Part shown: one piece after another, positions 26,818 through 38,016 of the stretch | How positions within the stretch are numbered: position 1 is the stretch's first letter | Layout of the letters: the number at the start of each line of letters is the position of its first letter | Assembly: GCA_045123995.1 (NCBI GenBank) | Contig: JBGVKY010000007.1 | Location: 109 to 64,108, forward strand | DNA from: Clostridia bacterium | GTDB lineage: Bacteria; Bacillota; Clostridia; CAKSNL01; HGM11501 | Reading direction: 5' to 3' | Length of the DNA: 64,000 nucleotides | The notes under the pieces: generated by a model | What the model saw: only the letters and a program-made list of their open reading frames with translations | What the model was told of the DNA's origin: nothing | The model's database searches: none | Program-made: the position numbers and the translations under genes

Positions 26818-27792
26818 TCATACCTCACGCCAGTCAGGTCCGTACAAAATTCCGTCTCTTATCTTATATCCTGCATTTTCAAGATAATCCACATCAGCTG
26901 CGCTCAAAGCTTTTATTCCGTTTGTTTTATATATAGCTACAGCATTTTCAACCGGGTCATAGTTTGAAAGATAACTGTTTCCCGCAGCATCATATAAAAT
27001 CCCTGTGGAGGGATCGTACCAACACCCCTCTTCTATGGCTAAAAGCTTCTGGTCCCTGGATAAAGCCTCCCAGCCCATTGACTGAAAGTCCTGCATCATT
27101 AAAATATAATCTGACTTCTTAGCCTTATTTTCTGTTTCCTCTTCCTCCAAGGCCTCTTTTTCCTTTTCCCAAATTTCCTCTTCTTTTCTGATTTTTTCTT
27201 CGGCAAGAGCTATTTCCTTTAAGTTTTTGTCCTGCTCGTATAAAAATTCATCATATGCCATTTTATAAAAATCTGTCATTTTATCCGCCGCTTCCTCCAT
27301 GTAATCATTGTACTCTCCGCTTGCGGCCGATACTGCGTAGCTTCCTGCCACGCCTCCTGTCATGGAAGAAAGCTTACCAAGGGTATCTTCCATGGCCTTT
27401 TTTCCCTCTCTCTCCATCTTATTCACATAATTTTTATATTTTTTATCACTTTCAGGGTCATAGGTAAATTCGGCATCTTCATACTTTTTTAATGCCTTTT
27501 CTAAATCTACGTAGCCTTCTGCCTCTTCATAGTTGAAGGCGGGACTCATAGTACTGTTTCCCTTAAGACCCATGCCTATTTCATCGCTTCGTCTTCCGTC
27601 AGAAAGCTCCCATATACCTGTAGCTTCATCATAATAACTATCCTTACCGGTTTTTGCATCCCATCTTTTTACAAGCTGCACCTGTCTCTCATGGGCTCCT
27701 TCAGGGTCCAATGCCCAATCTTCTCTGTTTTTTTGAAATTCCCGATCAAATTCTTCTTTTGTAATATCTTCATACATAAACTCATCTTTCAT
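26818..27792 (-). CDS. phage protein of unknown function (acidic, coiled-coil; positionally like the SPP1 gp7-type minor head protein)
   Basis: 324 aa. Overlaps the portal stop by 11 nt. GGAGAAGG RBS. No diagnostic motif. Confidence 0.3.
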   Translation of the reverse strand: MKDEFMYEDITKEEFDREFQKNREDWALDPEGAHERQVQLVKRWDAKTGKDSYYDEATGIWELSDGRRSDEIGMGLKGNSTMSPAFNYEEAEGYVDLEKALKKYEDAEFTYDPESDKKYKNYVNKMEREGKKAMEDTLGKLSSMTGGVAGSYAVSAASGEYNDYMEEAADKMTDFYKMAYDEFLYEQDKNLKEIALAEEKIRKEEEIWEKEKEALEEEETENKAKKSDYILMMQDFQSMGWEALSRDQKLLAIEEGCWYDPSTGILYDAAGNSYLSNYDPVENAVAIYKTNGIKALSAADVDYLENAGYKIRDGILYGPDWREV

Positions 27793-29443
27793 AAGCCTTC
27801 TCCTCTCTCAATTTTTCCTGCCTTTCAAAATTGGTTATTTTTGAAACAATCTCATCCTTTCCGTCAAAATCCATCATGGATAACATGAGCAGAGCCTGAT
27901 GAGAATTTTTCGGATTGAAAATCCCCATTCTGTAAAGATTACTTGCCGTTTCATTCTGGGAAAGCTTTGAATAAGGATTGGTTTTCTGCGCCTTCACACT
28001 TATATCAAATATGGGTTTCCTTTTCAGAGAATTTCCTTCGTGGTCCGTAAGCTTCACCCCACCGGGACCTACAGTATCCTTAATCACCAGGTTTTTGTTG
28101 GAATAAGACACAAATTTTTCGCCCTCATTTGGTTTTACAATTCTGAAGGTTCTCTCGTTTGTATAAAACTGTCTTATAAGCTCGATAACAAGATTTATTA
28201 TCTTGACGTAGGCACGGTAACTGGTTTTTATCATATCACGGCTGGTTTTGTTCCCTGCCTCCTGAAGTGTTGCTATTGCCGCACCGCTGGTTACGCCGCC
28301 CTGGGTTCCTCCGGAATTTACATCTCTGTTTCCTATATTTTCTTTAAGCTCGTAAATCTTTCTTTCCAGAAGCTTATAATAAATTCCGCTTAAGGGATTT
28401 AATGAAATCTGATGGAAACGTTCATCAGATATATCTCCCGCCACGGAAACAAAGGGCTTTGACCAGTCGGAAAATTCCTTTTCGTTTATGCCAACGTCTT
28501 TTTTCTTGAACCATCTGGGAGTTGTGGCTTTCTTGGTATAATCCATTATAAGGGCGTCCAGACAGTCGATATATTCCTGGGCATCTTTGGTTACACTTAT
28601 AATTCCGTAGCCTGTAACCTTATCAGCTTCAGGATAAAGTGTATCTATAACCACAGGATATAAACCGTGGTCATAAAATCCCTTTTCTTTATAGTCCGGG
28701 TCATCTTCAGATGCGTAAAGCACGGTATCACCTGTATATTTACAGTAGTGAAGCACTGTTTTTCCATTGACCCTTTTCTTATAGTACCAGTCCACAACCA
28801 ATGTCTGATTGCTTCTATCCACCTCGTCATCCTTTTCATATTCCGATAGGGTAACAGCTTCCTTTGATATTTCCTTATCGGGATAGCGTTCCTTAAGAAC
28901 ATCTGCGTCCATAGCGGCACAGATAAAAAGATTTGGACTTTTCTGTATATCCGAAACCGCAGGGTCCCAGAAAAGATTTAAAAGGTCAATATTTTTAACC
29001 GTTATATCTCCTATTCCAAAGTCTTTGTCCACATCCCAGAAAACTCCGTAGCAGGCACTTCCATGTTTAAGCTTGTACCAGGTGCCTTCAGAGTAGGTTT
29101 CTTCAAATTCATTTCTGTCCAAAATAACCGGAATTATATCCGTGAGCATGGCCGCTTCATTCATATCTGACTCTTCCCTTGGAAGCATATAGGGTATGGG
29201 GTAGCTATCCATCATGTCGGCATGCTTATTCACAACTGCATTCCACATATACGCCGAGCTCGAGGGGGTAACTCCATTGTTTTCTCCGGATTTTTTCCAC
29301 ATCTGAAGACGCCATGCTTTTTCTTCCTCCACTATTCTGGATTCCAGGTTGACTTTCCCGTTCTTATATCTTTCCAATATAGCGGAAGCTTCCATGATTC
29401 TTTCATCCGAAGCTTTTTTATTTACACTTTTAATCTTTTTCAT
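27782..29443 (-). CDS. phage portal protein (putative)
   Basis: ~550 aa, immediately 3-prime of the terminase large subunit, as is usual for portals. Start chosen at ATG 29443 (RBS GAAAGGAGAATT); the ORF-track start is a TTG at 29509. Confidence 0.5.
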   Translation of the reverse strand: MKKIKSVNKKASDERIMEASAILERYKNGKVNLESRIVEEEKAWRLQMWKKSGENNGVTPSSSAYMWNAVVNKHADMMDSYPIPYMLPREESDMNEAAMLTDIIPVILDRNEFEETYSEGTWYKLKHGSACYGVFWDVDKDFGIGDITVKNIDLLNLFWDPAVSDIQKSPNLFICAAMDADVLKERYPDKEISKEAVTLSEYEKDDEVDRSNQTLVVDWYYKKRVNGKTVLHYCKYTGDTVLYASEDDPDYKEKGFYDHGLYPVVIDTLYPEADKVTGYGIISVTKDAQEYIDCLDALIMDYTKKATTPRWFKKKDVGINEKEFSDWSKPFVSVAGDISDERFHQISLNPLSGIYYKLLERKIYELKENIGNRDVNSGGTQGGVTSGAAIATLQEAGNKTSRDMIKTSYRAYVKIINLVIELIRQFYTNERTFRIVKPNEGEKFVSYSNKNLVIKDTVGPGGVKLTDHEGNSLKRKPIFDISVKAQKTNPYSKLSQNETASNLYRMGIFNPKNSHQALLMLSMMDFDGKDEIVSKITNFERQEKLREEKAYER

Positions 29444-29453
29444 AATTCTCCTT

Positions 29454-30860
29454 TCAGTACAGCAAATAGTCATATTTCCCCACTTTAACATCCTTTGAAA
29501 GAGGGTCAAATGCCTTTATTTCATAAGGAATGCTAAGCGAAGGAGCAATGGGCTTTGCCATACACATATACCTTACCTCATCGGCAATGTGATCCTCTCC
29601 CTCAGTGTCCAGATCCTCAGGATGAGTTTTCGAAAAAACCAAGGAGGGAAAGGTTTTTATAAATCCCTCGCAGTTGGAAAACACATACATCATCGGAATT
29701 TTATTTTCATCAAAATTCAGTCTGTAATGTACCTGCATCCAACCGGGGATTCTGTTATTGTCTCCCTTGTCAAAGTATATACCGAAGCTTTCTGCTGTTT
29801 CGTAAACCGAAGTCCCACGGGACTTGTCCCAGATAGAGGGGTCTGCAACACCTGAAATTTCTTTGCCTTTCAGCCAGGCGTGGCTTTTTTCCAATTCGGA
29901 AACTTTCGAAAATATCTTTTCAGGTGTCCATTTAACCCCTCTGTTGGGTATATAAAATCCGCCCTCATCCCTTGCACAGCCATAAAGCTCTAAAATTCTG
30001 TAGAGTCTGCCGTCAAAGTCAATCGCCCACCAGGCAACTGAAAAGGGCCTTGCGTATCCGAAGTCGAAGCTTCGCATAATTGTCCATTCCGGTGGCGGAG
30101 TAAAGGGTGCAATAACATGTGTATCAATTCTGTCTTCGTAATGCTCAATATTATTTTTAAATTCCGAAAAAAACTGTCCCTCGAAAATATCCCAGTCTCC
30201 GTATAATAAGGCCTTCTTCTCCGATAGGGGTAGAGATTCCAGTCTCTTTATATATGACGGGTCGTTTTCCATTAAAAACTTATTTTCCTCCACTCTTGCT
30301 GGAATGAACAAAAAAGTTGTATCTCCTTTTCTAAAGGGTTTTCCGGGGATTCCTGGGTTTATGAACATGGTCTTCACCCAGGAATGCCCCTTGCTTCCGG
30401 GGTTGGTGGAGGACTTTATCTGCTTAGGAAATTTATTGACGCCTCGAAGACGGCTCCTCATATACTTATACTGATATTCCGTAAAATGAGTAAGCTCATC
30501 AAAGCGGATTATATCATATTCTGCCGACTGGTAATTGGTAACATCAGAATCATTTGCTATATACCCAAACTCAATGAATGAACCGTTTACAAAAGTCATC
30601 TTATGATTTACGGAAGAATATGTATAAATTTCTTTCGGAAAAAGGGAAAGTGCCGTAAGTATAATTGAACGGTTAAGCTCAGGAAATGAATTTCTTAAAA
30701 TTATCTGCTTTATTCCGGGATATGCCATAGCCTTTATAAAAGCATCTATAAGCTGTCCGTAGCTTTTTCCGCCCCCGGCGGCTCCTCCGTATAAAACTTC
30801 ATCCTCTTTGGCATCAATAAACATTTTCTGTTTTTTTGTTACATTTAAGTCTATCTCCAT
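29454..30860 (-). CDS. terL: phage terminase large subunit
   Basis: Walker A YGGAAGGGKSY near the N-terminus, Walker B-like IIRFDELTHF, C-terminal nuclease region with acidic residues. 468 aa. Confidence 0.75.
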   Translation of the reverse strand: MEIDLNVTKKQKMFIDAKEDEVLYGGAAGGGKSYGQLIDAFIKAMAYPGIKQIILRNSFPELNRSIILTALSLFPKEIYTYSSVNHKMTFVNGSFIEFGYIANDSDVTNYQSAEYDIIRFDELTHFTEYQYKYMRSRLRGVNKFPKQIKSSTNPGSKGHSWVKTMFINPGIPGKPFRKGDTTFLFIPARVEENKFLMENDPSYIKRLESLPLSEKKALLYGDWDIFEGQFFSEFKNNIEHYEDRIDTHVIAPFTPPPEWTIMRSFDFGYARPFSVAWWAIDFDGRLYRILELYGCARDEGGFYIPNRGVKWTPEKIFSKVSELEKSHAWLKGKEISGVADPSIWDKSRGTSVYETAESFGIYFDKGDNNRIPGWMQVHYRLNFDENKIPMMYVFSNCEGFIKTFPSLVFSKTHPEDLDTEGEDHIADEVRYMCMAKPIAPSLSIPYEIKAFDPLSKDVKVGKYDYLLY

Positions 30861-30879
30861 TTTTCCTCCCCGGTCCTTT

Positions 30880-31128
30880 TTAGCCTTCAGACAATTCGCT
30901 TATGCGCTCCTGGGCCTTGCCCTTCTGTCCCAATGCCTGCTCTATTACTAGGGCATATTTTCTCTTGATTTTTACTTTCTTTCCTCTGGGAACTATGAGC
31001 GCTGTTCCGTTTAAGATTACAACAACGTCATCTTTATATCTGCCGTCATCCTTGTGAAGTGTTATTTCAACTTCCTCATTTAAGTAATCCTTGTTTTCGT
31101 AAATGTTTTCTTTAACCTTTGTAGCCAT
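30880..31128 (-). CDS. small phage protein of unknown function (82 aa, basic)
   Basis: ATG 31128 preceded by GAAAGGAA; the ORF-track TTG start at 31146 abuts the capsid stop. No motif. Confidence 0.3.
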   Translation of the reverse strand: MATKVKENIYENKDYLNEEVEITLHKDDGRYKDDVVVILNGTALIVPRGKKVKIKRKYALVIEQALGQKGKAQERISELSEG

Positions 31129-31146
31129 AGTATCAATTCCTTTCAA

Positions 31147-32148
31147 TTAGTTTTCTTCGTCTTCAAAGCTTGATGTGGTTTCTACTCTTACCATGTAAGG
31201 TTCAACCAGAATTTCTGCAGTATGGTATGCTTTCCAGCCCACTGTAGAACGCTGATTTAAGGGGTCTCCCGTACCTGCGGAACCCAACGCCTTAACGATG
31301 GTTGTAAGACCTCCGCCTTCAATATCTGTTATACCGTAAGCATCCTTACCGAAAATAAGAGTTGCATAAACGCTTCTTCCGTCGGCACCTTCCTTCCAGA
31401 TTTTAGCCTCTGTTGATTCGATTACCTTTACTCCTGCAATTTCTCCGATTTCACCGTTATAGATTTTTTCGACGTTATTTGAAGTGTACTTCTGGGCTTC
31501 AATCCAGTCGGGATCACTCATCAAATCGTAAGCTACTGAAGGATGCATGATTGCAATATAGTAACCGTCAATTTTGGGTGTGTTGTTCATTTTAAGAGTG
31601 CGGACTGCTCTCTTTAATACGTCAACGGACATATAGTGATTTCCTGTTTCAGCTCCGCCCTTTAATGCCCCTCTTGCTTCAACGCTGCCGTCAAAGTACT
31701 GAACGTTTGTACCGCAAACCAAAATATCTCTTTCCACGTTGTCGATGGTTCTTGCCGCCTGGTCTGAAATAAGCTCCAGGGTTTCGGTTACCACGGGGTC
31801 TATTGACATAACGTTAAGATTATCGGAAATTGTGACATATCCGCCGTACTGGTGAATTGTACCCGTCACAGTGGATACGTCAAGATTCTGTCCGTCGGGA
31901 GTTACGCCCTCTGTGAGAGGTGTTGTAGCCTTACCGAGAGGTGTAAACTTACGGAACTCGATCTGATTACCGCCGTTTACAGGGATGTTTCTCTTCTGAC
32001 CGAACTGACCGTGTATAAGATTGGGCTTTGCCAGATGAATTAAGGTTTTGTCATAGAAAACCTTGTTCTGTGATACTAAATTGTTGCCTTCCTTGTTAGA
32101 TGTCATTGTGTTGGTGTTAAGACCAAATAAGTTTAAGTTGATATTCAT
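31147..32148 (-). CDS. phage major capsid protein (putative)
   Basis: 333 aa, directly downstream of the scaffold-like and Prp-like genes. Strong GGAGGA RBS. Assignment by position and size only. Confidence 0.45.
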   Translation of the reverse strand: MNINLNLFGLNTNTMTSNKEGNNLVSQNKVFYDKTLIHLAKPNLIHGQFGQKRNIPVNGGNQIEFRKFTPLGKATTPLTEGVTPDGQNLDVSTVTGTIHQYGGYVTISDNLNVMSIDPVVTETLELISDQAARTIDNVERDILVCGTNVQYFDGSVEARGALKGGAETGNHYMSVDVLKRAVRTLKMNNTPKIDGYYIAIMHPSVAYDLMSDPDWIEAQKYTSNNVEKIYNGEIGEIAGVKVIESTEAKIWKEGADGRSVYATLIFGKDAYGITDIEGGGLTTIVKALGSAGTGDPLNQRSTVGWKAYHTAEILVEPYMVRVETTSSFEDEEN

Positions 32149-32166
32149 TATAATTCCTCCATTTAA

Positions 32167-32844
32167 TTATTCTGCGAAAGTTATTTTTTCGCCGTTTTTT
32201 ACTTTTTTGAGAATTTCATCAATTTCCTTATCTGTCAGTGCTCCTGCACTTTTCTTAGCACGGACAGAGGGTGAATTTTCAATTCCCGCTTCATTGATAC
32301 GGCCTTTTCCTGCACGGATATTTTCCAGGGCCGCTTTAGATGCATGTTCGCTTATGCCTTTTGATATTTCGTCGAAATTTAAAGCCCTGTATAAAGAAGT
32401 CATGGGAATTCCTGCATTAAGTCCTTTTACAAAATCAGGTTTTTCAAATTCCTTTGAAAACTTGAATTCAGGATATATTTCCGAGGTTTTCTTCGCCTCG
32501 TCCATCCACTTTTCATACATTTTTTCAAACGTTTCTCCTTCGTAGTTATTTTTAGAAGGAGCAAGCACCTCCTTCTTTAAATCCTTTAATATAAGAGTTA
32601 CAAGGCTTTCTATGTCGCTTATGCCGTAATACTCTATTAAAGGTGCAAGGCTTTTTCTAATTGATACCAGTGCTTCTTCGGTTTCTCTCATTTTTTTGAA
32701 GCGCTTGGCAAATTCTCTGTCGAATTTCTTCTGAAACTCGTCTTTATATTCATTTTGCATGAGGTCTGAAAATTTCTTTCCTTTTTCTTCTCCCACGCCC
32801 GGGCTTTTTACTTCCCTCTCATTTTTTTCTTTCTTATTTTCCAT
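32167..32844 (-). CDS. phage scaffolding protein (putative)
   Basis: 225 aa, very charged and predicted helical (KE-rich), located between the Prp-like protease and the capsid gene. Confidence 0.4.
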   Translation of the reverse strand: MENKKEKNEREVKSPGVGEEKGKKFSDLMQNEYKDEFQKKFDREFAKRFKKMRETEEALVSIRKSLAPLIEYYGISDIESLVTLILKDLKKEVLAPSKNNYEGETFEKMYEKWMDEAKKTSEIYPEFKFSKEFEKPDFVKGLNAGIPMTSLYRALNFDEISKGISEHASKAALENIRAGKGRINEAGIENSPSVRAKKSAGALTDKEIDEILKKVKNGEKITFAE

Positions 32845-32864
32845 GAAAAATCCCTCCTAAAAGT

Positions 32865-33158
32865 TTACTCCGCAAATTCTTTTGCTAAAATCAAATCTTC
32901 CCTGTATTTTTCCCCTATTATTTCTATACCGCATCTGAACATTTTCAGTGCTTCTTTCGCCTTTCCATTAAAGATAATTTCTGAATTACCCTCAAGGACC
33001 CGGCACTTTTTGAAAATACAGCCCGACTCTTTTAAGTACCCTAAAAGAGCGTAAAACAATCCGGATACCGCATGGCATACCTCACTTTTTTCGGCATGTC
33101 CCAAAATTTTTATTCGGGTATCCTCATTTTCTTCTACCGAAACCGAAATCATACGCAT
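32865..33158 (-). CDS. Prp-like cysteine protease (ribosomal-processing protease homologue used by phages for capsid/scaffold N-terminal cleavage)
   Basis: ILGHAEKSEVCHAVSGLFYAL fits the Prp GHA...VCAAVS catalytic His/Cys dyad pattern. ~100 aa. Confidence 0.5.
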   Translation of the reverse strand: MRMISVSVEENEDTRIKILGHAEKSEVCHAVSGLFYALLGYLKESGCIFKKCRVLEGNSEIIFNGKAKEALKMFRCGIEIIGEKYREDLILAKEFAE

Positions 33159-33179
33159 CCCCCCTTTCAATAATTTTTC

Positions 33180-33770
33180 CTATTTTTCGATTAACTTTTT
33201 CTGATATCTTCTTATTATTGCCCTTAAGTAATCTGCCTTGACCTTTGCTTTTCCCGATAAGAAAAGCTCCCAGTTTATCACATTCTTAAAGGTTATAATG
33301 CCATCTTTATACATGGTGTTCACAAGTTCATCTTCCGATACCTTAAGGATTTCATCAAAGGGGAATTTATCTCCGGGACACTCTGTTACCGAAAAGTCCG
33401 AATGTTTATAAATTCTAAAATCCTTGCCGTAGATTTCTTCTAAGTAAGCTAAAAGCTTTCTTCCTGCTTCCAGCTGTTCCTTCCCCATGGACTCTTTTGT
33501 AAAGTCTCCCTCAAAGCAAATTCCTATACTTTCCGTGTTCTTTCCCTGGCAGTGGGCACCCATGGTTTCTATGGGCCTTCCACGATATATGGAGCCGTCG
33601 CACCTCACATAGAAGTGATAGCCAATTCCTGCCCAGCCTTTTTTTATGTGGTCTTTATGTATGCTTAAAATATCACCGAAGCCTGCCCTGTGGTGCAAAA
33701 TTATTTTTTCAGTCTTGCTTCTTGCCTGAAGTCCGCCTTCAAATACAAGCTCTGTTTCAATTATGTTCAT
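33180..33770 (-). CDS. N-acetylmuramoyl-L-alanine amidase (Amidase_2/PGRP-type endolysin)
   Basis: Zn-binding His/Cys pattern of T7-lysozyme-type amidases (ILHHRAG, GYHFYV, HSDFSVTECPG). Confidence 0.8.
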   Translation of the reverse strand: MNIIETELVFEGGLQARSKTEKIILHHRAGFGDILSIHKDHIKKGWAGIGYHFYVRCDGSIYRGRPIETMGAHCQGKNTESIGICFEGDFTKESMGKEQLEAGRKLLAYLEEIYGKDFRIYKHSDFSVTECPGDKFPFDEILKVSEDELVNTMYKDGIITFKNVINWELFLSGKAKVKADYLRAIIRRYQKKLIEK

Positions 33771-34212
33771 TTAATACCCCCTCTACTTTACTTTTGCTTA
33801 CTTCAAGTCCTTTAATTAAAAATGAGGGAACTTCAACCTCCATCAATATAAGATTTTCCAGAATCGAGCGTATTTCATTTATAATAAATGTTGCCAGGGT
33901 AAACCAGCCGAAAAGAGCAGTAAAGCTTAAATCGGCTCCTATGTGATGCCCCATTTCCTTTAAGGAAACAGCTATGAAAAACGCCACGGCTATGCAAATC
34001 CAGTAACCTAATTTTTTAACTATTCCCCTGGCTCCTTTTAAGGAATTTTCAGCTCCGAAATACTTGGCTTTTAATATTCCCGTTATGTAATCCAAGATAT
34101 TCAATATCAAAAAGCATAAAAATAGGTACCAGTATTCTCCCAATATTCCCGAAAGCAAGGTGACTAAACTTCCCCACAAAAAGTTCATTTTGTTAAATAA
34201 TTTCTCCATCAT
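33757..34212 (-). CDS. phage holin (holin_4_1/TcdE-like family)
   Basis: 151 aa with three hydrophobic TM helices and a charged C-terminus. Overlaps the amidase start. Confidence 0.6.
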   Translation of the reverse strand: MMEKLFNKMNFLWGSLVTLLSGILGEYWYLFLCFLILNILDYITGILKAKYFGAENSLKGARGIVKKLGYWICIAVAFFIAVSLKEMGHHIGADLSFTALFGWFTLATFIINEIRSILENLILMEVEVPSFLIKGLEVSKSKVEGVLNEHN

Positions 34213-35090
34213 TTCTTCCTTATTTCCTCCTCTAATTCAAATATTTTTTCGTCGTATTTCTTAACCAGTGTGTCTACAATTTTTGCCATTTCACCACGTT
34301 TTAATGCTCCCTCGGGCTCAAAGGAGTTTTCGCTTCTTCCGTCGAAAATTCCCGAAAAATATCCATTTCTTATGTATTTTTCTGCCCAGTGGCCTGAAAC
34401 GTCATTAAAGGGCAGGTCGAACTTGTCCATAAATATCAGATACACCTCAGAAAGGTATTTAAAGTCCACCTCATGAAGACCATTATCTCCGAATTCTTCG
34501 CCCCAGGAATTCTGGCAAAGGGCTAAATTGTCCTTTGTCCAGCCTATAATGATTTCTGCATGACGGCCTAAACTTCCGTAGTCCCATATCATCATAAGGG
34601 GCAGATTAAATTCATAAAGAGTTCTTTTTATGTTGGTAGCAAAATCCTCATTCTTTTTGACCTTAAAATAATTACCCACCTTAAAGCCCATGGATTTAGG
34701 ATATTTTTCCTTATATTCCTTTGCCTTTTCGATTGCTTCGGGCACCTCAAAATTTCCCGGTGCAATCCTTCTTGTGGTTGTTCCTTCCTCTCTTCCCAGT
34801 TTTATTGTGGTTTCAGGGAACATTCCCTCTCCCGTGTGCTTTCTCCAGAGTCCGTAAACCATCAGCACCGAAAGGTCTGTATCATCCTTTTTATTTTTAA
34901 TTAAGTTTGCCTGCATACATTCGCAGATGGCATGAGCCACGCATGAGCTCACTGTTTTCTGGTCAAGTACCTTTGGCCTGTTTTTTATTATATATTCTTC
35001 GGGGAGCTCCTCCTTTTTTACCGTGATAATTTTTTCAATATCGTAAACTCCCGTACTTCCTACACTTTTCAATACTCCTGTTTTATGCAT
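34209..35090 (-). CDS. papain-like cysteine peptidase with C-terminal SLH (S-layer homology) domain; probable cell-wall-targeted lysin
   Basis: Cys in QKTVSSCVAHAICE and His in LGRHAEIIIGW (peptidase dyad). C-terminal FNDVSGHWAEKYIRNGYFSGIFDGRSENSFEPEGALKRGEMAKIV matches the SLH consensus. Confidence 0.5.
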   Translation of the reverse strand: MHKTGVLKSVGSTGVYDIEKIITVKKEELPEEYIIKNRPKVLDQKTVSSCVAHAICECMQANLIKNKKDDTDLSVLMVYGLWRKHTGEGMFPETTIKLGREEGTTTRRIAPGNFEVPEAIEKAKEYKEKYPKSMGFKVGNYFKVKKNEDFATNIKRTLYEFNLPLMMIWDYGSLGRHAEIIIGWTKDNLALCQNSWGEEFGDNGLHEVDFKYLSEVYLIFMDKFDLPFNDVSGHWAEKYIRNGYFSGIFDGRSENSFEPEGALKRGEMAKIVDTLVKKYDEKIFELEEEIRKK

Positions 35091-36915
35091 AATATCTCTC
35101 CCTTCCTATTCCGTAAATAGTATATTTTCCTGTTCCTTCAAATCTTAATCTGTATGTACTGCACCGTCTTATAACTACAGGGATTTTAAATACGTTCCTC
35201 TTTTCTTTTCCTTCTTTTTCCCAGAGAGGAATAAAATCTTCCCCGTCATAGCTTATAAGAAGTTTAAGACGTGCCCCTTCTTCTATTTTGCAGCTTACAG
35301 AAATTCCCGAAACTCCCTTTTCCTCTAAAGATGCATCGTAAATGGGGGCATATTCAACAAAGCTTTCTATCTCTTCGTCATCAATTTCCCCGTTTACAAG
35401 ATAAATGCCTTTTTCGTCCATGAAATAAAAGTTCTTACCTAGTCTTGCAAAATCAATTATTTCACCTGACGATTCTTTTACCCATGCCCTGATTTTTGTG
35501 TCATATTTATAAATAACATTTTCACCCGAGGAAAGCTTTGTGGCCAAATAGTACTTATCTTCAACTGTTCCTCCAACTCCACTTCTGAGCTTTTCCCCAA
35601 GGGCTGCCCCCACTAAGTAAGGGTAAGAGCCGGAATATCCCATAACTCCCTGAGAAGAAAGATAATATAAAACTCCGTTTACTATAGCTAGACTCTTTTC
35701 AGCCCCTTTCATAACTCCTGCTATATCCTTTGTTTCATAAGTAGAGTACTGTGATGTATAGTTTCCTCCAATCCTTATAAGCGAATCCTCCTTGAAAAAT
35801 GTCGGATATCCGTTGTACTCTATGCCTCCGGTAAATTTTCCGTTTGAAAGTACCGATACCGCCCAGGCACTTCCCGAAAGAGTGCTGTAATTATTGTAGT
35901 TAAAGGGGTCTCCCAGAGCCGATGCATGAATTTCGTCTCCGTCAATTCCCCAGAGTCGGTTGTTGGAACAAAAGGCAAATTCAAAATTCGGTACTACTCT
36001 TTCAATGGTTATCGATAGCACTTTTGATATTTTAAATTTCGTATCAAATGTCAAAGTTGCATATTCTTTCGAGTCGCTTGTAGTTGTTCCTTTTTTTACA
36101 AGTTCTGTATAATATATTTTATTTTTCCCCCCCTCCACGGTTGCGCCCACTAAAAGTGTAACTTTGAAATAGTCCCCTATTCTCATCCAGTTTATATCTC
36201 TGGCTTTCGATTCTCTTATCTGTACCAACTGATGAAGTTCATTATCCAGACTCTCATAGAACTTTATGTAATTTAATTCTTCTTTATCTTCAACGTAAAG
36301 CTTACCTCCCATTTCCCCGAAAGTATCCAAAAGATATATCCATCTGTCTTGCTCCGCATAATCTTCAACATCACTTTTACTTCTTTTTACCGCTTTCCAT
36401 GTTCCCTGAGAATTAAATTGTACTACCGCATAGGGAGCCTTTGTCCCCACAGTATATATATCACCATCCTTCAAGGTTGGGTCGTTTAATGTCGCCTCCT
36501 GGAGCGCGGTTAAGGTTTCATAGGTCCCCAGGCTTTCCCTTTCCCACAAGGAAAAATATTTTCTGTCCGGGAAAACGCATATATATTTATTTACAACAGC
36601 AAAGGTCTTTTCTGACTTTTCAACTTCAAAGAATTTTTCATCGTCATAGTAAAAATATGCCCTCCCGTCTTCCTCATCCACCGCACAATAATATAACTTA
36701 TCGTCTCTTCCCATACCGTAAGGTTTTTCCCTAAAAGATTTTATCAAGTCCCTTTTGTTTCTTACGGATAACGAAGGATAGTCGTCGGTTGTAATATTCA
36801 TGCAATCGTAAATTTCACCGTCTTTTGCTCCTTCGGTGTGGTTTATTCCGGCAAAAAGAAATTTATTTGCCGTTTTTTTTGATTTAGTGTATTTTGCCTT
36901 TGGCAGTTTTAACAT
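35083..36915 (-). CDS. large phage protein of unknown function (610 aa; possibly tail-fibre/receptor-binding or other structural protein)
   Basis: First gene of the leftward operon with a strong AAGGAGAAAAAAT RBS. Gly/Tyr-rich C-terminal half. No catalytic motif. Confidence 0.3.
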   Translation of the reverse strand: MLKLPKAKYTKSKKTANKFLFAGINHTEGAKDGEIYDCMNITTDDYPSLSVRNKRDLIKSFREKPYGMGRDDKLYYCAVDEEDGRAYFYYDDEKFFEVEKSEKTFAVVNKYICVFPDRKYFSLWERESLGTYETLTALQEATLNDPTLKDGDIYTVGTKAPYAVVQFNSQGTWKAVKRSKSDVEDYAEQDRWIYLLDTFGEMGGKLYVEDKEELNYIKFYESLDNELHQLVQIRESKARDINWMRIGDYFKVTLLVGATVEGGKNKIYYTELVKKGTTTSDSKEYATLTFDTKFKISKVLSITIERVVPNFEFAFCSNNRLWGIDGDEIHASALGDPFNYNNYSTLSGSAWAVSVLSNGKFTGGIEYNGYPTFFKEDSLIRIGGNYTSQYSTYETKDIAGVMKGAEKSLAIVNGVLYYLSSQGVMGYSGSYPYLVGAALGEKLRSGVGGTVEDKYYLATKLSSGENVIYKYDTKIRAWVKESSGEIIDFARLGKNFYFMDEKGIYLVNGEIDDEEIESFVEYAPIYDASLEEKGVSGISVSCKIEEGARLKLLISYDGEDFIPLWEKEGKEKRNVFKIPVVIRRCSTYRLRFEGTGKYTIYGIGRERYYA

Positions 36916-36941
36916 ATTTTTTCTCCTTCCTCAATTTAATT

Positions 36942-37091
36942 TTATCCTGCCGGATTTTCGATTTTTCTTTCGTAAAGACTTTCTTCTTCATCTTTCGTAA
37001 GCTCCTGACTTAAAACAAAGCACCAGTTATATAAAATTTTTAATTTTTCATCCGGGCTCATGTTCTCTTCTACTCTGGGAAGCTTTTGCAT
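36942..37091 (-). CDS. small acidic hypothetical protein (49 aa) heading the leftward operon
   Basis: GGAGGAATTTGT-ATG. MQKLPRVEENMSPDEKLKILYNWCFVLSQELTKDEEESLYERKIENPAG. Not in the ORF track (under 60 aa). Confidence 0.3.
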   Translation of the reverse strand: MQKLPRVEENMSPDEKLKILYNWCFVLSQELTKDEEESLYERKIENPAG

Positions 37092-37244
37092 ACAAATTCC
37101 TCCTTTAACTCATTAGGTTACAAACGGGCGAAAAAAATTACCCCACCGCCCAATACAGGCTGCAGGAACCTATATTGGCAGAGAGAACTCAATTCTTACG
37201 CTGTATAATAAGTATACCACACTTTTTTACACCTGTCAAGTCAT

Positions 37245-37320
37245 TTTTTAAAAAAATTTCTTTTTAGGTCATTTTGTACAAAAAACTCTTGACTTTATTG
37301 ACTCATTATGTTAATATATA
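37245..37320. promoter_or_regulatory. divergent repressor/lytic promoter-operator region with repeated TTGACT/AGTCAA half-sites
   Basis: TTGACT-17-TAATAT promoter for the repressor (about 37290-37318). TTGACT/AGTCAA motifs recur three times (tgtcaagtca; cttgactttattgactc). Confidence 0.4.
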
Positions 37321-37335
37321 TACGAGGTGATACTT

Positions 37336-37971
37336 ATGACTATGGGTCAGAGAATTTATTCTTTACGTAAACAAAGAAAAATGACACAGGAAGATGTAGC
37401 AAAAAGATTGGGCGTTGCAGTTCAGACAGTTTTTAAATATGAAAAAGGAATTGTAACCAATATCCCCTTGGACAAGCTTGAGGTTTTGGCAAGGATTCTT
37501 GACACCACCACTACCTACCTTACCGGCTGGGGCGGTGAAGATGAGGACTCAGGCAGAGAAACAATAAAAAATCTCATCACGGCAGACCTTGTGAAAATCC
37601 CCCTGCTTGGAGAGATTGCCGCTGGCGAGCCCATTTTAGCTCAGGAAGAGCATGAATCATTTGTAGAAGCAGGAAGCGACCTTCATGCCGACTTCTGTCT
37701 TAAGGTTCACGGTGACTCAATGATAAATGCCCGTATCTACGACGGTGATGTGGTTTTCATTCACAAACAGCCTATGGTTGAAAACGGTGAAATTGCCGCT
37801 GTTATCATAGATAACGAAGCCACATTAAAGAGAGTTTATTACTATCCCGAGAAAAATAAGCTTATGCTGACTCCCGAAAACCCTGCTTATGAGCCCTTTG
37901 TTTTCATGAATGAGGAGCTTTCTAACGTAAGAATTTTAGGAAAGGCAATCGCATTCCAGAGTAAGTTATAA
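37336..37971 (+). CDS. CI/LexA-like phage repressor (XRE HTH + S24 peptidase domain)
   Basis: HTH QEDVAKRLGVAVQTVFKYEKG. Autocleavage-type Ala-Gly (EIAAGEP), S24 catalytic Ser in GDSM and Lys in ATLKRV. GAGGTGA RBS. Confidence 0.8.
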   Translation: MTMGQRIYSLRKQRKMTQEDVAKRLGVAVQTVFKYEKGIVTNIPLDKLEVLARILDTTTTYLTGWGGEDEDSGRETIKNLITADLVKIPLLGEIAAGEPILAQEEHESFVEAGSDLHADFCLKVHGDSMINARIYDGDVVFIHKQPMVENGEIAAVIIDNEATLKRVYYYPEKNKLMLTPENPAYEPFVFMNEELSNVRILGKAIAFQSKL

Positions 37972-38016
37972 AAAAATAAGGTTGAAAACGAAAGTTTTCA
38001 ACCTTATTTTTTTATT
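37972..38016. terminator. bidirectional terminator between the repressor and mrp
   Basis: aaggttgaaaac-gaaa-gttttcaacctt (12-bp perfect stem) flanked by A7 and T9. Confidence 0.65.

Follow-up and report, generated by a model that had tools for sequence, protein, structure and literature searches.

C1-SLH heads a lysis cassette in a phage-derived operon

The window analysed here, a 64,000-nucleotide stretch of contig JBGVKY010000007.1 (assembly GCA_045123995.1), comes from an uncultured gut Clostridia bacterium and carries a phage-derived gene cluster. Within this cluster, a gene on the minus strand (34209-35090) encodes a papain-family peptidase followed by one S-layer homology (SLH) domain and a C-terminal helix, as assigned from the open reading frame (ORF) list, Pfam and an AlphaFold2 (AF2) model. 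We refer to the gene and its 293-residue product, a stand-alone 33 kDa protein, as C1-SLH. The ORF, which an earlier note on this DNA had placed at the same position, proved to be real: it begins with an ATG at 35090, a strong ribosome-binding site (GGAAGGGAGAG) lies 5 nt 5′ of this codon, only five in-frame codons precede the ATG before a stop is reached, and the stop codon occupies 34209-34211. A dN/dS of 0.068, calculated against the related locus L002, indicated that the gene is under purifying selection.

Immediately downstream lies a holin gene (33757-34212, minus strand), identified by matches to Phage_holin_4_1 (Pfam, E 2.6e-29) and TIGR01593 (E 1.2e-19), whose product contains two hydrophobic segments in a simple Kyte-Doolittle scan. 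It is followed by a gene for an N-acetylmuramoyl-L-alanine amidase of the Amidase_2 family (33180-33770, minus strand; 196 residues; Pfam E 1.5e-17; phrog_35436 amidase, E 4e-34). This amidase, in which no recognisable wall-binding domain was found, is the conventional endolysin of the cassette. The three genes are tightly interlocked, the C1-SLH stop and the holin start overlapping by 4 nt (ATGA) and the holin and amidase genes by 14 nt, while upstream the C1-SLH start overlaps the stop of a tail nozzle gene, p610, by 8 nt. C1-SLH is translationally coupled to the holin and Amidase_2 genes inside a repressor-controlled, phage-derived operon.

The N-terminal domain is a divergent papain-type peptidase

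Alignment, Foldseek and a family profile assigned residues 1-222 (34425-35090, minus strand) to the xylellain type of peptidase family C1A. In an alignment of 26 relatives, Gln44, Cys50, His177, Ser195 and Gly197 were invariant, and Asn194, part of an N-S-W-G motif, was kept in at least 90% of the sequences. Pairwise alignments placed the catalytic residues onto the catalytic motifs of xylellain and cathepsin B. On the minus strand, Gln44 (codon 34959-34961), Cys50 (34941-34943), His177 (34560-34562) and Asn194 (34509-34511) correspond to the oxyanion glutamine of papain, its catalytic cysteine and histidine, and the orienting asparagine of its Asn-Ser-Trp-Gly motif.

A profile of the C1-SLH family searched against the PDB retrieved xylellain (E 2.4e-7, positions 37-217) and cathepsin K (E 5e-5). 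Consistent with this, the AF2 model of C1-SLH (pLDDT 88.9, pTM 0.87) shows a two-lobed papain fold, for which the top Foldseek match was xylellain (3ois; E 1e-12, target-normalised TM-score 0.70), followed by pro-papain, Der p 1 and cathepsins, the E values ranging from 1e-12 to 3e-8 at a probability of 1.00. The earlier note had described a papain/CHAP-like Cys...His dyad. The dyad, Cys50/His177, and its papain character hold, whereas the CHAP component had to be abandoned: neither CHAP (PF05257) nor NlpC/P60 (PF00877) gave a Pfam match at E<=0.1, and neither fold appeared among the 50 best Foldseek matches in the PDB.

No I29-type inhibitory prodomain was found in the protein, which fits the short xylellain-type subgroup (PMC10380794); since the motif that opens the mature domain starts within about 10 residues of Met1, there is no space for a papain-type prodomain. 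A search for a signal peptide likewise found no hydrophobic N-terminus in C1-SLH. Judged by alignment and model, the N-terminal domain, although divergent, is a true C1A peptidase; it belongs to the short xylellain type and has an intact catalytic centre. Peptidases of this type are reported to have been acquired by tailed phages, in a review that gives them no function (PMC10380794).

A single SLH domain continues into a candidate trimerising helix

The single SLH domain of C1-SLH (residues 227-269; 34284-34412, minus strand) spans the whole of the Pfam profile PF00395 (positions 1-44 of 44) with an E value of 2e-9 and 37.7 bits against a cut-off of 20.8, and in the PDB search with the family profile this region matched SbsB (2.6e-10) and Sap (2e-9). 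The earlier note had recognised this domain in the segment FNDVSGHWAEKYIRNGYFSGIFDG...FEPEGALKRGEMAKIV (residues 228-272), in agreement with the full-length Pfam match. It had also named in advance two grounds for abandoning its proposal, namely an N-terminal domain lacking a conserved Cys/His and a C-terminus that is not SLH; both were examined, and neither was the case.

The ligand-binding motifs of SLH domains in Sap, SpaA and LysBT1 comprise a conserved Trp, a G-I-I-x-G-type loop and TRAE (PMC12285257). C1-SLH contains W235, a G-x-x-x-G loop ending at G251 and the TRAE-type sequence K-R265-G-E267, and W235, G251, R265 and E267 are invariant in a 15-member core alignment. The TRAE-type motif takes the form [TK]R[GA]E in the core family and KRGE in the window protein.

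Each C1-SLH chain carries one SLH unit, and a three-pronged module needs three. The second helix of the SLH domain runs on into a 28-residue helix (model residues 265-292, DSSP), so that the protein ends in an amphipathic helix (residues 270-293; 34212-34283, minus strand) which DSSP assignment of the model and a heptad test mark as a candidate trimerising coiled coil. Hydrophobic residues were enriched at heptad positions a and d in 15 of 22 family members (p<=0.03), with p=0.086 in the short window copy. Furthermore, SLH domain and helix align as a single stretch to the stalk of OmpM1 (8BZ2; family profile, E 1.7e-8). OmpM1 assembles as a trimer to which each chain contributes one SLH domain, and its SLH binds polyaminated peptidoglycan (PMC10628300); LysBT1 trimerises through its single SLH, which mediates binding to the cell surface (PMC12285257). 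The heptad pattern, the homology to trimeric OmpM1 and the precedent of LysBT1 together suggest that C1-SLH probably forms a trimer of single SLH domains.

The earlier note had assumed pyruvylated secondary cell-wall polymer (SCWP) as the SLH ligand and, from this, specificity for S-layer-bearing hosts. Because SLH domains of the OmpM type have polyaminated peptidoglycan as their ligand instead of pyruvylated SCWP, and OmpM1 is the closest solved protein with a single SLH plus helix, the ligand of C1-SLH is uncertain, and the pyruvylated polymer stays an assumption. The SLH of LysBT1 bound diverse bacteria (PMC12285257).

Full-length homologues and their genomic contexts

A search of 5.8 billion clustered proteins yielded about 30 full-length homologues of 283-333 residues with the same architecture, nearly all of them metagenomic and confined to uncultured Clostridia or their phages. 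This rarity bears out the view that the architecture is uncommon, as does the date of the first published SLH endolysin, 2025 (PMC12285257). The 12-gene block of the window recurs at the same chromosomal site in two loci, nearly identically in L001 and with 56-93% protein identity in L002; other metagenome-assembled genomes (MAGs) of uncultured Clostridia, together with phage contigs, carry the C1-SLH gene in shuffled arrangements. The order peptidase, holin, amidase, proposed from the window alone, is correct there, and an Amidase_2 gene lies directly downstream of C1-SLH, with or without a holin gene between them, in 7 of the 10 arrangement types. These seven include a podovirus-like contig of 35-42 kb and a siphovirus-like contig.

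Two further features were noted around the homologues. Directly 5′ of C1-SLH in several relatives (L108 197-358; L010 3542-3703; L003 9822-10004; L008 6769-6996; L107 169-381) lies a small acidic ORF of 53-75 residues with the motif TDGxxYGKxIxLxEG...YEITxEEY and no transmembrane segment, which is absent from the window and gave no Pfam or NCBIfam match. A possible likeness to XkdX-type proteins was considered, to which the NCBIfam and Pfam searches lent no support. An uncultured Ruminococcus sp. MAG (L012 9884-10228) encodes a 114-residue derivative in which about 25 N-terminal residues are joined straight to the SLH domain and coiled-coil tail; the peptidase is cleanly deleted, and the gene still lies 5′ of small ORFs and an amidase-like gene. 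The derivative has either arisen by a recent deletion or is a wall-binding protein in its own right.

A wider clade of C1A peptidases without signal peptides

To place the catalytic domain, residues 1-225 were searched exhaustively by phmmer against 1.84 billion representative proteins, which gave 399 matches at E<=1e-3, including 48 at E<=1e-10. We examined 102 of the 399 relatives for domains and N-termini. Nearly all of these (94/102) matched Peptidase_C1 (PF00112), with a best E value of 1e-49, and 100 of the 102 were devoid of a signal-peptide-like N-terminus, one of the two exceptions having a truncated start. SLH domains, in one or three copies, occurred in 29 of the 102, and other members carried SPOR (4), Cu_amine_oxidN1, choline-binding repeats or long coiled coils. 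Wall-binding domains in proteins that have no secretion signal are a hallmark of holin-dependent endolysins. A second wall hydrolase domain was present in two relatives, Amidase_2 in P0153 and Peptidase_M23 in P0197, and a Phage_holin_6_1 gene starts 4 nt after the gene for the P0153 fusion.

Among 50,697 deposited phage records, the only relative was Tsac_2838, annotated as 'peptidase C1A papain', of Thermoanaerobacterium phage THSA-485A (NC_018264), which resides as a prophage in a cultured strain. Tsac_2838 is 25% identical to C1-SLH over residues 1-212, and its gene lies 16 nt after that of Tsac_2839, an endolysin composed of a GH25 and a peptidoglycan-binding domain (L112 5080-6834). The C-terminal tails of the two proteins are homologous (BLASTP E 1e-8; 0 of 20,000 shuffles). 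This common, unannotated tail comprises about 25 residues after a Pro/Gln-rich linker and reads Y-x-I-x-F-D-D-x-N-x-A-x-x-V-A; it is possibly a module for targeting or for association of the two proteins. A corresponding module common to the window amidase and C1-SLH was sought and rejected, the last 62 residues of the amidase matching the C1-SLH C-terminus at an E value of 5.3. Seen beside the P0153 fusion and the THSA-485A pair, the window cassette resembles a two-enzyme lysin that has been split, the anchor-less amidase and the SLH-anchored peptidase being made as separate proteins around the holin gene.

At the far end of the clade, three phage contigs of 128-203 kb (L102, L104 and L105) encode relatives next to DNA ligase, thymidylate synthase, helicase and primase genes. 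For L102 and L103, the retrieved gene failed to translate into the query protein, and L102 contains large stretches without called genes, which may indicate an alternative genetic code.

The surrounding phage-derived element

C1-SLH is part of an unusual 11 kb phage-derived block of podovirus type (26818-37971) that was delimited by Pfam and PHROG matches and by the presence of the same block in L001 and L002. It contains genes for a repressor, orf49, the nozzle, C1-SLH, the holin, the amidase, a Prp-like protease, a scaffold, the major capsid protein, orf88, the large terminase, a P22-like portal and p324. The 610-residue p610 (35083-36915, minus strand) was identified as a podovirus tail nozzle from its AF2 model (pLDDT 85, pTM 0.83), for which the top 22 Foldseek matches in the PDB were all nozzle or tail-hub proteins, including those of T7 (gp12), P22 (gp10), Sf6, SU10 and Kp9 (E 8e-14 to 9e-8). 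For p324, considered as a tail adaptor, no sequence match was found in the PDB. The Prp-like cysteine protease gene (32865-33170; Pfam E 1.4e-4; phrog_4478) is situated between the amidase gene and the scaffold and capsid genes, which suggests N-terminal processing of capsid or scaffold proteins.

Divergent from the operon lies a gene (37327-37971, plus strand) whose product combines an XRE-type helix-turn-helix with Peptidase_S24, according to the Pfam matches of the 99%-identical L001 copy, and represents a CI-type, LexA-like repressor. An interpretation of this ORF as LexA itself was rejected, given that the XRE-HTH plus S24 composition is of the CI type and the gene moves with the element; in L008 and L009, copies 75-77% identical are found with the cluster at different loci. 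Facing the 12-gene operon, a consensus scan found a candidate promoter (37211-37239, minus strand) consisting of TTGACA, a 17-nt spacer and a TG-extended TATACT (11 of 12 matches), a call based on pattern in a region where the number of promoter-like sites was not above that in shuffled controls. Only one terminator-like site, a weak one at 33908-33893, was detected on the minus strand inside the cluster. The intergenic region between repressor and operon also holds a second, divergent near-consensus extended -10 promoter (37289-37317, plus strand) and the palindromes TTTTTTAAAAAA (37244-37256) and TTTTGTACAAAA (37273-37285), which lie inside a 23-nt direct repeat and may serve as operators for the XRE+S24 repressor. 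A long hairpin at 37970-38013 constitutes a bidirectional terminator.

Within 26818-37971 we found no integrase, replication gene or fibre gene, nor flanking att-like direct repeats. All genes of the block are intact, and for the 12 of them that permitted the calculation dN/dS against L002 was 0.04-0.27; dS is saturated and comparable to that of flanking host genes, and the GC content matches the surroundings. The block is not a decaying prophage, and may be a domesticated particle locus resembling a gene transfer agent, a satellite or an unusually small temperate podovirus. Records of 11-12 kb labelled 'Bacteriophage sp.' carry related capsid and nozzle genes, but these are unverified linear scaffolds with no terminal overlap, so they prove nothing about genome size.

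C1-SLH as a probable lysis-time peptidase and the competing explanations

In several respects C1-SLH has the make-up of an endolysin, being phage-encoded, adjacent to a holin, devoid of a signal peptide and built with its catalytic domain at the N-terminus and its wall-binding domain at the C-terminus. Moreover, its catalytic domain has been fused across the clade to SLH, SPOR, choline-binding repeats, Amidase_2 and M23 and is encoded beside holin genes, which argues for modular, holin-dependent use of the C1A fold. We consider it quite likely that C1-SLH is a holin-dependent, wall-anchored lytic enzyme and, with somewhat less assurance, regard a wall-targeted cysteine peptidase working at the time of lysis beside the cassette amidase as its probable role. 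As for the substrate, the SPOR, choline-binding, Amidase_2 and M23 fusions point to something common to all walls. This tentatively favours the stem or cross-link peptide of peptidoglycan, C1-SLH then being a second enzymatically active domain supplied as a separate gene, a proposal to which we give slightly less than an even chance.

In such a mechanism, inactivation of the CI-type repressor, probably by an SOS signal, would allow C1-SLH to accumulate in the cytoplasm, from where it would reach the wall only once the holin had opened the membrane. As in Sap, LysBT1 and OmpM1, the three single SLH domains of a trimer would then form a three-pronged wall-binding unit that may dock on pyruvylated SCWP or on modified peptidoglycan as its wall polymer. 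Thus positioned, C1-SLH would hydrolyse envelope peptide bonds as the amidase detaches the stem peptides from the glycan. With the corrections given here, the overall interpretation of the earlier note is supported.

Several observations weigh against this role. An endolysin attribute that C1-SLH does not share is a catalytic family with demonstrated peptidoglycan hydrolase activity: no member of family C1 is known to cleave peptidoglycan, and the papain-like enzymes that do so are classed in the NlpC/P60-CHAP cluster, apart from C1 (PMC10318531). A search of the literature library used here found no paper linking Peptidase_C1 to endolysins. Searched alone, the window protein matches Peptidase_C1 (PF00112) over residues 41-208 with an E value of 0.0086 and 16.6 bits, below the cut-off of 20.7. 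Three of the ten genomic contexts (L107, L010 and L110) have no adjacent holin or amidase gene, and distant relatives consisting of C1 alone or of C1 with Cu_amine_oxidN1 are found among the DNA-metabolism genes of the 128-203 kb phage contigs, outside lysis cassettes, so that a secure link to lysis exists only for the closer members of the clade. A search for host S-layer biology revealed no other SLH protein and no csaB within the window. Finally, the C1-SLH gene is often located directly 3′ of tail-fibre-like genes, and here of the nozzle gene, a position that a virion protein could also take; at this junction of tail-fibre and lysis genes, position alone cannot separate the last tail gene from the first lysis gene.

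The main alternative, to which we give a low probability, also places C1-SLH in lysis and changes the substrate. As an SLH-anchored, papain-type protease of the S-layer or of surface proteins, it would be a third lysis component that cuts the protein lattice after the amidase has opened the peptidoglycan, a step that might be likened to the action of spanins on the outer membrane or of LysB on the mycolate layer. Family C1 consists of protein endopeptidases, and the full classical catalytic set is kept in C1-SLH, in a cassette that already contains a conventional peptidoglycan hydrolase. The SLH anchor is, in addition, the anchoring system of S-layer proteins themselves, so enzyme and lattice would be co-localised on the same wall polymer, and some of the 29 SLH-bearing clade members have the triple repeat typical of surface proteins. 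Viral egress enzymes that degrade S-layers have been postulated but not identified, and were described as unknown in 2015 (PMC4456609). On the other hand, members of the same clade are fused to SPOR, choline-binding, Amidase_2 and M23 modules, some of them probably in hosts without SLH-anchored S-layers, and the THSA-485A peptidase is paired with a peptidoglycan-binding endolysin through a common tail that is not SLH. A general protease without a prodomain would, moreover, need a very narrow specificity to be tolerated in the cytoplasm. That C1-SLH is the first phage-encoded S-layer protease, a trimeric, holin-released enzyme that dismantles an SLH-anchored lattice as a third lysis step (or as an entry step, if virion-borne), is in our judgement unlikely.

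We think it less likely still that C1-SLH is a virion-associated enzyme or receptor-binding protein, that is, a tail-attached trimer whose SLH domains recognise a wall polymer while its peptidase breaches the S-layer or wall at infection. Such a role would account for the overlap of the C1-SLH start with the nozzle gene stop and for the genes just 5′ of C1-SLH in relatives, which in many cases look like fibre genes and contain collagen repeats or match Mtd_N weakly. For fibre attachment with six-fold symmetry a trimeric coiled coil would be well suited; the window and L002 versions of the element offer no further gene that could encode a fibre or spike, and in L010 and L107 the gene sits among structural and packaging genes with no lysis genes nearby. 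However, no recognisable virion-docking domain is present in C1-SLH, its conserved N-terminal motif being the start of the mature papain domain and recurring in relatives that are not virion proteins. Its size and layout, catalytic domain first and wall-binding domain second, are those of endolysins; no structural gene is linked to C1-SLH as consistently as the holin and amidase genes are; and in P0153 the C1 domain is fused to Amidase_2 beside a holin.

A host autolysin or secreted surface protease lying by chance in a prophage remnant is very improbable. SLH domains are typical of host surface enzymes, and the block is vertically conserved at one chromosomal site under purifying selection, but the gene forms an operon with overlapping codons alongside holin, nozzle and capsid genes, and its homologues are found in bona fide phage contigs of 35-42 kb. 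The self-targeting autolysin that the earlier note had offered as an option is unsupported because C1-SLH lacks a signal peptide and its gene belongs to a phage-derived operon. Hardly credible at all is a phage protease that acts inside the cell to mature the capsid or take over host proteins, since an SLH domain, which binds the wall, would have no function in the cytoplasm, even though the protein has no secretion signal and distant relatives are encoded with early or DNA-metabolism genes in large phages; capsid maturation was specifically rejected in view of the SLH domain and of the Prp-like protease encoded beside the scaffold and capsid genes.

Relation to known lysis and surface proteins

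Among known systems, one of the closest to C1-SLH is LysBT1 from prophage PBT1 of Brevibacillus thermoruber, which its authors reported as the first SLH-containing endolysin (PMC12285257). Both are (pro)phage lysis-cassette proteins with one C-terminal SLH domain bearing the Trp, G-x-x-x-G and TRAE-type motifs. In LysBT1, however, the SLH is fused to an Amidase_2-type domain, whereas in the window it is attached to a papain-family peptidase, the amidase is separate and anchor-less, and a heptad-patterned tail is added after the SLH. A 252-residue protein of a Clostridium sp. MAG (L018 9449-10204) appears by eye to have a LysBT1-like composition, with an amidase-like N-terminal domain and a single C-terminal SLH; if that reading holds, single-SLH lysins also occur in Clostridia.

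With respect to the catalytic domain, xylellain (3OIS) is the best match in both structure and sequence for residues 37-217, with the same Gln/Cys/His/Asn centre and no long I29-type prodomain; in contrast to C1-SLH, to which it is only about 19% identical, it has neither a wall-binding domain nor a link to lysis genes. In their general plan, a Cys-His peptidase, an amidase and a wall-binding domain deployed in a holin-released layout, CHAP and NlpC/P60 endolysins are similar (e.g. the LysK-type CHAP+Amidase_2 enzymes, PMC10318531), and the C1+Amidase_2 fusion of P0153 beside its holin mirrors the CHAP+amidase endolysins. C1 is nevertheless a different family, with a larger, two-lobed fold. 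Tsac_2838 of THSA-485A, a C1A peptidase encoded immediately downstream of an endolysin gene, differs from C1-SLH in lacking an SLH domain; in its place stands a short C-terminal tail, with homology to the tail of the GH25 endolysin that it accompanies.

OmpM1 of Veillonella parvula (8BZ2, 8BYM; PMC10628300) aligns to the family profile at residues 227-294 and shares the arrangement of a single SLH followed directly by a helix, but it is an outer-membrane porin tether of a diderm, with its SLH at the N-terminus and no enzyme domain. XepA of the Bacillus subtilis element PBSX (xepA-xhlA-xhlB-xlyA) offers a parallel in gene order: as an extra, non-amidase protein it heads a holin and amidase cassette in a repressor-controlled, defective phage-like element, and its contribution to lysis is unresolved (PMC6834076). 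XepA, a pentameric dumbbell with neither a catalytic centre nor an SLH domain, is unrelated to C1-SLH in sequence and fold.

The catalytic domains recorded in catalogues of endolysins are CHAP, NlpC/P60, M15, M23, amidase and glycosidase domains. Against this background, C1-SLH can be classed as a modular enzyme of the endolysin type whose catalytic family is uncharacterised in phage lysins and whose anchor has seldom been described. Holin-dependent, modular use of a C1A domain would add a catalytic class, and possibly a new bond specificity, to the enzybiotic toolbox, and the single SLH domain with its coiled-coil tail forms a small module, probably trimeric, that could target uncultured gut Clostridia and might also serve as a probe. 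Should the substrate instead be the S-layer, the enzyme would answer the old question of how phages of S-layer-bearing bacteria bring their progeny through the protein lattice, and the signal-less C1A clade would then represent phage enzymes that, as a general class, strip away surface barriers made of protein.

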